Counted from the first letter of the stretch, positions 1,006-1,058 are shown. The stretch: DNA of 6,062 nucleotides from a virus (IMGVR_UViG_2541047126_000011); one strand, 5' to 3'. Program-made: numbers and translations. The notes: generated by a model from the letters alone, not told the origin.

Positions 1006-1058
1006 CGGGTCCTCCTGGTGGGGTGGGCCTGAACACGGGGCGGGCGGGCGCGGAAAAA
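1006..1058. other. putative cosN-like G/C-rich core of the cos packaging site
   Basis: The string ACGGGGCGGGCGGGCGCGG (1035..1053) resembles the lambda right-end/left-end junction ...ACG|GGGCGGCGACCT as I recall it. It sits about 185-200 bp upstream of the small terminase start, similar to the lambda cosN-to-Nu1 spacing, and is immediately followed by an AT-rich block. Exact nick positions cannot be determined from sequence. Confidence 0.4.

Follow-up and report, generated by a model that had tools for sequence, protein, structure and literature searches.

We analyzed a 6,062-bp stretch of DNA (IMGVR_UViG_2541047126_000011; hereafter the window, numbered from its first letter) that spans a late-gene junction of a lambdoid prophage, as judged by gene calling and Pfam and PHROG profiles. 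Positions 984 to 1238 of the window very probably form the cos region of a lambdoid prophage of the Shiga toxin (Stx) phage/Sp15 type, a site that would work like lambda cos. A first-pass annotation had proposed a cosN in a G/C-rich core upstream of the small terminase gene, and we read ACGGGGCGGGCGGGCGCGG at 1035 to 1053 exactly as it had described. The cosN-like spacing and the A/T-rich DNA after the core also held up. From G1038 it is 201 bp to the ATG, at 1239, of the downstream gene that DUF1441 and PHROG 141 identify as the small terminase subunit, TerS; nu1 in lambda starts at bp 191, a distance of 190 bp. The G+C content was 75% over positions 1020 to 1059 and dropped to 22 to 37% over 1060 to 1199. 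The resemblance to lambda cos that the annotation had noticed in the core proved wider, taking in cosQ, the left half of cosN, an I2-like spacer, a cosB-like array, both terminase subunits, and the same genomic slot.

The likeness to lambda beyond the G/C core comprises cosQ, a block at 984 to 998, and bases -3 to +6 around the nick. The cosQ heptamer GGGTCCT (1007 to 1013, plus strand) is identical to that of lambda and was invariant in an alignment of nine cos regions; in lambda, cosQ is the packaging-termination signal (definition from PMC4669245). The near-palindromic block ATGATAACCATTATC (984 to 998, plus strand) shares 14 of 15 bases with lambda's ATGATAATCATTATC at the equivalent place, is also found in mEp213, and is partly present in cdtI and phi458. 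The predicted cosN reads CG/GGGCGGGCGGGC/GC (1036 to 1051), and its left half, ACG/GGGCGG (1035 to 1043), equals lambda bp -3 to +6. The lambda ends that we fetched for comparison read ...gatgataatcattatcactttacGGGTCCTttccggtgatccgacaggttACG to the left and GGGCGGCGACCTCGCGGGTTTTCGC to the right of the junction, and the window at the same junction reads ...aatgataaccattatcgtttttgcGGGTCCTcctggtggggtgggcctgaacACG and GGGCGGGCGGGCGCGGAAAAAGGCGC. From this register we predict with high confidence that the top-strand nick, N1, falls between 1037 and 1038. The parts of cos that match lambda are those under selection, and bp 7 to 12 vary freely among lambda-like phages (PMC4669245). The window has two of the features named in the criteria of Feiss, a cosQ about 23 bp before the nick and a conserved left half of cosN (PMC4669245). 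From the end of cosQ to the predicted nick we counted 24 nucleotides (nt) in the window and 23 in lambda, and this spacing was 22 to 24 nt in 125 of 128 sampled lambda-like sites. The arrangement GGGTCCT-N18-26-ACGGGGCGG occurred once in the window (1007 to 1043), in 0 of 200 dinucleotide-preserving shuffles, and in 76 of 80 related IMG/VR loci.

The alignment with known cos sites that the first-pass annotation had proposed as a check placed the lambda ends and those of relatives in register with the window. The record of phage cdtI, which has a DUF1441 TerS, starts with GGGCGGGAGCGTCGCGGAAAAAGG and ends ...GGGTCCTTCCGGTGGGGTGGCCTGCCACG / ...GCGGGTCCTTCCGGTGGGGTGGCCTGCCACG (...CCACG), in the exact register of the window. 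For phage LLS, the annotation gives a 12-nt 5' end, GGGCGGCGCGCT, which its authors derived from the presumed cos of mEp213 (PMC12315714). In Hafnia phage yong2, whose record is linear, the first bases are CGCGGG, beginning just past the overhang, and the record stops 12 nt beyond the expected top-strand nick. These three ends are depositor conventions or inferences, and they agree with one another. Many Stx1a and PhiR phages match the window only through 1013, the last base of cosQ. In the Stx1a phage Stx1_9793 (L197), the shared block at window 780 to 1013 is followed by GGGTCCTTTCCGGCGATCCGACAGGTTACG/GGGCGGCGACCT, lambda-type R sites, and Nu1 (MEVNKKQLADIF...). Because an authentic lambda cos follows the shared block there, the window candidate occupies the same slot, and because the block runs into a lambda cos and Nu1, cos is a recombination junction of two packaging modules. 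Homology with many Stx1a, Stx2c, and PhiR phages stopped at window position 983, 1013, 1030, or 1093 to 1109. The prophage VT1-Sakai (Sp15) has a cosQ-cosN-cosB identical to that of the window, 16-nt core included, and its TerS and TerL are 100% and 99.7% identical to the window proteins; its record has no cos annotated at this locus. Induction gave DNase-resistant particles in which Sp15 DNA was found (PMC2669165), and as VT1-Sakai shares the 16-nt core, we argue that this form is not inactive.

To the right of the predicted nick (numbered with 1038 as bp 1), the spacer GCGGAAAAAGGCGCATTTTTGTGATTTTATC (1050 to 1080, plus strand) occupies the position of lambda I2, which is required for termination in lambda (PMC4669245). 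It carries conserved CGCGG, A-run, GGC, and T5 segments, and CGCGG, AAA, GC, and TTTTT were the invariant spacer columns across the nine aligned cos regions. The spacer is followed by an R3-like element, the candidate TerS site GTCATCATCATCATGATGG (1081 to 1099, plus strand), with its core ATCATCATC at 1084 to 1092 (bp 47 to 55), and by an I1-like putative integration host factor (IHF) site, AAACAACAAGTTA (1100 to 1112, bp 63 to 75, minus strand), one mismatch from WATCAANNNNTTR. Then come an inverted R2-like element that reads AGATGATGATTGTGG on the plus strand (1133 to 1147, minus strand), with its core GATGATGAT at 1135 to 1143 (bp 98 to 106), and an R1-like element, GTTCGACATCTTT (1158 to 1170, bp 121 to 133, plus strand), in the same orientation as R3. 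The R3-like and R2-like cores form an exact 9-nt inverted repeat around the most A/T-rich DNA, and the R1-like element and the R2 region form a 90% inverted repeat. In lambda, R3 is bp 50 to 65 and the order is R3-I1-R2 (inverted)-R1 (PMC9026076); the candidate elements at 1081 to 1170 stand in the cosB order given by Feiss, R3, IHF, inverted R2, and R1.

Relatives supported this assignment. A CATCA-type element was present at bp ~44 to 58 in all of them, and GTTC(G/A)(A/T/C)CA(T/C)C recurred at bp ~119 to 133 in cosB classes B0 to B3 and in mEp213. Fels-1, with a TerS 57% identical to that of the window, has the same layout with three clean repeats (CATCATCATCATG, GTAACTCATTGTTTTAAT, AAAGATGATGATTTG, and GTTCATCATCTT); AAAGATGATGATTTG stands at the R2 place, and GTTCATCATCTT, the counterpart of the R1-like motif, lies a few base pairs further from the nick. 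The three-element layout was kept in classes B0 to B3, Fels-1, and mEp213 and was not recognizable in cdtI/HannyBb. An IHF consensus with 0 to 1 mismatch, on the minus strand and starting at bp 61 to 64, was found in 7 of 7 cos classes of the TerS family, and the IHF site is convincing only because its position is conserved in these seven classes. The 19-mer at 1097 to 1115 is identical to lambda I1 (bp 71 to 89) at 15 of 19 positions, a level reached by 31 of 2,000 shuffles.

The terminase genes follow directly. TerS (158 amino acids [aa], 1239 to 1715, plus strand) matched Pfam DUF1441 and PHROG 141, "terminase small subunit" (E = 6e-66), and the large subunit, TerL (707 aa, 1712 to 3835, plus strand), matched Pfam GpA_ATPase (1.8e-81) and GpA_nuclease (6.2e-84). 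TerL showed 24% identity to lambda gpA over 675 aligned positions (BLASTP, E = 1e-18), and its nearer relatives belong to cos-type lambdoid and Chi-like siphophages; it belongs to the gpA family (ATPase and endonuclease) and is presumed to be the enzyme that nicks cosN. TerS had no BLASTP similarity to Nu1. It matched PHROG 57, the family of Nu1, at 1.8e-10 over residues 4 to 156 (Nu1 itself, 1.3e-76), and Nu1 reciprocally matched PHROG 141, the family of the window protein, at 5.6e-8. An hhalign comparison of TerS with Nu1 set the N-terminal helix-turn-helix (HTH) regions in register with a probability of only 13.5%, a single-sequence AlphaFold2 model of TerS (predicted local distance difference test score, 53.5) was too poor for use, and a search of the PDB with the TerS sequence returned only noise. 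The reciprocal profile matches point to TerS as a divergent, remote homologue of Nu1, the protein type with an N-terminal winged HTH that the definition of Feiss calls for (PMC4669245), and the N-terminal HTH half of TerS is the presumed reader of cosB.

Among 78 loci, four to five TerS N-terminal (HTH) classes paired one-to-one with four cosB classes, and a single TerS C-terminal class, C0, occurred with three of the cosB classes. The cosQ, the cosN, and the GGAAAAAGGC...TTTTT spacer were common to all these cosB classes. In lambda and phage 21, cosQ and cosN are common and a specific cosB is read by the TerS N terminus; the co-variation is consistent with this modular pattern but is not proof of it. 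TerS itself is mosaic: two loci (L052 and L075) share the C-terminal half of the window protein from about residue 100 (one residue off in L075) and differ in the N-terminal HTH half, which in L075 is that of mEp460_4F5. The crossover sits between the presumed DNA-binding and TerL-binding parts.

The first-pass annotation had allowed that the overhang might differ from that of lambda in sequence and length, and the core is indeed 1 bp shorter than in lambda and of polymorphic length in the clade. We measured core length as the bases from the invariant ACG to the A-run in a clade sample of 76 sequences (75 IMG/VR loci plus the window, with TerS 74 to 100% identical). A 17-nt core (12 plus CGCGG) is found in lambda, cdtI, phi458, PhiR40_1, HannyBb, mEp460, mEp213/LLS, and Fels-1. 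Within the clade, 51 of 76 sequences had a 15-nt core, mostly GGGCGGGCGGCGCGG, which reads canonically as CG/GGGCGGGCGGCG/CG. A 16-nt core was present in 23 of 76, as GGGCGGGCGGGCGCGG in 11 (the window and 10 loci), GGGCGGGTCGGCGCGG in 10, and two single variants. One sequence (L075) had a 17-nt core, and one (L020) had a 12-nt core that is the window type less one GGGC unit, a loss of exactly one unit that suggests replication slippage in the tract. The bases before CGCGG numbered 10 or 11 in the window's clade and 12 in other DUF1441-TerS phages. Two loci (L010 and L015) have a TerS and first 500 TerL residues 100% identical to those of the window and yet carry a 15-nt core, so the same terminase meets both core lengths; one locus with an identical TerS has a 12-nt core. 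The record of mEp460_4F5 (L085, LR595868.1) starts with CCACGGGGCGGGAGCGCGG and has a 14-nt core, and mEp460 itself reads GGGCGGGAGCGGCGCGG, the canonical 17 nt. We rejected the 14-nt core as a real variant; it is probably an assembly artifact where the cohesive ends were joined.

By homology with lambda GGGCGGCGACCT, with the LLS/mEp213 end, and with cdtI, we predict a 12-nt 5' cohesive end, GGGCGGGCGGGC (1038 to 1049, plus strand), made of three copies of GGGC, and we hold this length and sequence at about even confidence. The 12-nt end is favored because the left half-site is critical in lambda and the right half tolerates change (PMC4669245). The bottom-strand nick, N2, is predicted opposite 1049/1050 for a 12-nt end, 1048/1049 for 11 nt, or 1050/1051 for 13 nt. 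We rejected an attempt to place N2 from its spacing to R3, as the spacer carries indels between relatives. The analysis shows the anatomy of the sequence, its conservation, the kinship of both enzymes with those of lambda, and a position equal to that of known or annotated phage ends; from these we infer the actual cleavage, the N2 position and overhang length, TerS binding, and IHF binding.

Several observations weigh against a functional lambda-like cos with a 12-nt end. The window core is 16 nt, against 17 in lambda, cdtI, Fels-1, and mEp213, and with a 12-nt stagger positions 13 and 14 (1050 and 1051) are GC, where 122 of 128 lambda-like sites have CG. On the criterion of Feiss that CG lies directly 3' of the 12-nt overhang (PMC4669245), the clade's 15-nt core has this CG and the window lacks it; the CG would return only with a stagger of 11 or 13 nt or with N1 shifted left by one base. 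The 24-nt distance from cosQ to the nick is a minority value (8 of 128 sites), and the IHF match in the window by itself did not reach significance (2 matches against 3.7 expected). None of the 99 IMG/VR and 21 metagenome contigs with the right-flank motif ended at the nick; the nearest contig edge was that of L328, which starts 12 nt upstream of the predicted nick. Sp15 is listed among the prophages with head or packaging defects (PMC2669165), and its packaging in Sakai could be the work of another prophage's terminase. The link between cosB and the TerS N terminus could also be mere physical adjacency in mosaic blocks.

It is possible, though we consider it rather unlikely, that the site is a cos whose cohesive end is not a 12-mer: 13 nt, GGGCGGGCGGGCG (1038 to 1050); 11 nt, GGGCGGGCGGG (1038 to 1048); or, with N1 shifted, GGGGCGGGCGGG (1037 to 1048). 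Each of these would keep the common CG, or CGCGG, to the right of the bottom nick. All plaque-forming relatives have 12 nt plus CGCGG, and yong2 starts with CGCGGG; in the window, CGCGG comes after only 11 nt. Two-fold symmetry, counted by hand, is best for the 13-nt reading (5 of 8 pairs, as in lambda), and moving N1 one base to the left gives the commonest cosQ-to-nick spacing, 23 nt. However, the left half-site with CG at -2/-1 is critical in lambda and bp 7 to 12 are tolerant, which argues for a fixed N1 and a 12-bp stagger, and the definition of Feiss states 12 nt (PMC4669245). A fixed-geometry enzyme is also the simpler account of an identical TerS and identical TerL residues 1 to 500 on 15- and 16-nt cores, and no lambda-like phage is known to us whose end is 11 or 13 nt long, which counts against these lengths. 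A literature search on the candidate overhang strings gave, among the matches listed, only G-quadruplex or unrelated papers and none for a phage of this clade. We likewise doubt that the 16-nt class as a whole gives a 13- or 11-nt end, with nick spacing following half-site recognition and not a fixed dimer geometry. Were this so, the cohesive ends of co-resident O157 prophages would not match one another, and the mismatch would hinder or modulate cross-packaging and recombination among them. The probability left after the 12-nt and alternative overhangs would go to poor or absent cleavage or to other outcomes.

One such outcome, which we consider improbable, is a decayed cos of a resident prophage in which slippage added a G (GG to GGG) and so gave rise to the three GGGC copies; the site would be cut poorly or not at all, and packaging would proceed via recombination or another cos. 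The canonical 15-nt core is the majority form in the clade and in 12 of 19 phage-type metagenome contigs, the tract is prone to slippage, with L020 short of a further GGGC unit, many of the prophages in O157 are defective, and Sp15 was transferred only as recombinants (PMC2669165). Yet the 16-nt core of the window is present in 11 sequences, another 16-nt type of independent origin is present in 10, VT1-Sakai/Sp15 has the window's core and its DNA is packaged (PMC2669165), the right half of cosN is tolerant in lambda (PMC4669245), and the flanking subsites and terminase open reading frames (ORFs) are all intact. That the site serves no packaging role is hardly credible; on this reading the intergenic region that separates the lysis genes from the head genes would hold a G/C run by chance, a transcription terminator, a small-RNA end, or a G-quadruplex. 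The (GGGC)3 run after GGGG-T-GGG is a potential G-quadruplex motif, the literature matches for GGGCGGGCGGGC are G-quadruplex aptamers, and the 460-bp gap has no annotated gene; against this, we found no terminator-like site at 1000 to 1100 and no Rfam match in the window at E <= 1, and the shuffles, the base-for-base register with the lambda and cdtI ends, and the lambda cos in the sister-phage slot all argue for a packaging site. We also rejected two other packaging modes. Headful (pac) packaging is unlikely given a gpA-family TerL with relatives in cos-type siphophages and a full cosQ/cosN/cosB signature, and an HK97-type cos with a 10-nt 3' end does not suit a gpA/Nu1-type terminase; the 3' cos of an Stx1 phage, CGCCCCCCCT (PMC7946995), is unrelated.

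On the reading of 984 to 1238 as a lambda-like cos, the N-terminal HTH of TerS would bind the three CATC-rich repeats (R3-like, inverted R2-like, and R1-like) during late growth, and IHF would bend the A/T-rich DNA between R3 and R2 at 1100 to 1112. The TerS-IHF assembly would place the gpA-type TerL on cosN (1036 to 1051), where the top strand would be cut just past G1037 and the bottom strand some 12 bp further right, giving a 5' end that begins GGGCGG... and is most likely GGGCGGGCGGGC. Packaging would then run rightward into the terminase and head genes and stop at the next cos, with cosQ (1007 to 1013) and cosN needed for the terminating cut.

The genes around the candidate cos are those of a late-gene junction. 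An Rz-type lysis gene (62 to 529, Pfam Phage_lysis) is followed by a small ORF of 74 aa (553 to 777; PHROG 2571, function unassigned) and by a noncoding gap (778 to 1238) without a convincing ORF. The small ORF, possibly a piece of a longer gene, aligned only to positions 100 to 172 of the 291-position PHROG 2571 profile and had no Pfam match. The ~220 bp after it (778 to 1000) were 92 to 98% conserved across many Stx phages with differing packaging modules, and contained neither a convincing ORF, an Rfam match, nor a terminator. Downstream of terL are a W-like head-tail adaptor (3808 to 4044, PHROG 118), a lambda-family portal (4044 to 5546, Pfam Phage_portal_2), and, from about 5500 onward, the start of a ClpP-like protease gene, so named in RefSeq at that position. 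The claim of an intact packaging module stands insofar as the TerS, TerL, W-like, and portal ORFs are full length, a statement that covers the 6-kb window only. RefSeq labels the gene after the portal (5500 to 6062) as a ClpP-like prohead protease/major capsid fusion, a Gifsy-2-type head module (PMC12315714), and the window is therefore lambda-like in packaging and not in head assembly.

At the DNA level, the window groups with Stx-converting and O157 prophages. Positions 793 to 1260 were 98.1% identical to VT1-Sakai (Sp15), and the intergenic region was 93 to 97% identical to several Stx2 prophages. At least 80% of the window was present in about 494 of 5,426 complete Escherichia coli genomes; none of those searched was identical to it, and the best reached 99.4%.

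Two related contigs differ from the window in the terminase region. In L152 (IMGVR_UViG_2778261356_000005, reverse complement) and L163, TerL is cut at about residue 335, which corresponds to about window position 2717 to 2721, and past the break lie genes for a P4-type tyrosine integrase, for a Bro-N protein, and for a 584-aa primase-helicase of the D5 type. Next is a second, different cos (core GGGCGGAGGGGCGCGG, B1-type cosB) with no TerS behind it, and thereafter a 75-aa ORF, a 629-aa fusion of ClpP and capsid, and, where the contig stops, a third cosQ. The segment looks like a phage satellite, similar to a phage-inducible chromosomal island and possibly capsid forming, with its own cos in or after terL. 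The TerL ORF ended at residue 335 in 6 of 76 loci; that of the window is intact.

The site is a further lambda-type cos, nothing unusual in a prophage family that is itself very common, and its scientific value is modest. For a widespread prophage module of Shiga toxin-producing E. coli, a known cos would define where the virion genome begins and ends and in which direction it is packaged. It would help to predict which neighboring DNA (stx, effector morons) can be mobilized and to judge packaging competence, and it would aid the design of tools for cosmid work or transduction in O157. Two aspects are not routine: the cosN core length is naturally polymorphic (15/16 nt) under an identical terminase, and the mosaic is clean, with the TerS N-terminal domain traveling with cosB and with cosQ and cosN shared across specificities.

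Compared with lambda, the window has the same cosQ and the same bases at -3 to +6, a cosB-like array similar in layout and coordinates with an I1 19-mer identical at 15 of 19 positions, a similar distance to TerS (201 versus 190 bp), a gpA-family TerL, and a TerS that is probably a remote homologue of Nu1. It differs from lambda at overhang positions 7 to 12 (GCGGGC versus CGACCT), in a core 1 bp shorter before CGCGG, at positions 13 and 14 (GC versus CG), and in the distance from cosQ to the nick (24 versus 23 nt). Its R elements are CATC rich and unrelated to those of lambda, where the R3 stretch at bp 50 to 65 reads GGCGTTTCCGTTCTTC.

The nearer systems are the DUF1441-TerS phages Fels-1, Gifsy-2, mEp460, mEp213/LLS, phi458, and cdtI, whose TerS proteins belong to the same family (35 to 57% identity); TerL is about 71 to 72% identical in mEp043 (with a TerS as in mEp213) and Tritos (cdtI-like). 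The cosB repeats differ between TerS N-terminal classes. Fels-1 and Gifsy-2 differ in their cosQ. The variant AGGTACT replaces GGGTCCT in these Salmonella relatives (L194 and L195) and in some satellite cos sites, including the second cos of L163, and in Fels-1 it stands at a normal spacing of 22 nt. Natural cosQ variation was described as "not apparent" in the N15 paper (PMC4669245), and its occurrence in Fels-1, Gifsy-2, and the satellites shows that such variation exists. Gifsy-1 is counted as a lambda-like cos phage with three R sites and an IHF site (PMC4669245, PMC9026076). The DUF1441-TerS phages share with the window the order cosQ-cosN-GGAAAAAGGC-T5 and then an IHF site at bp 61 to 76, and the R3, I1, R2, and R1 sequences of Fels-1 are nearly the same as those of the window.

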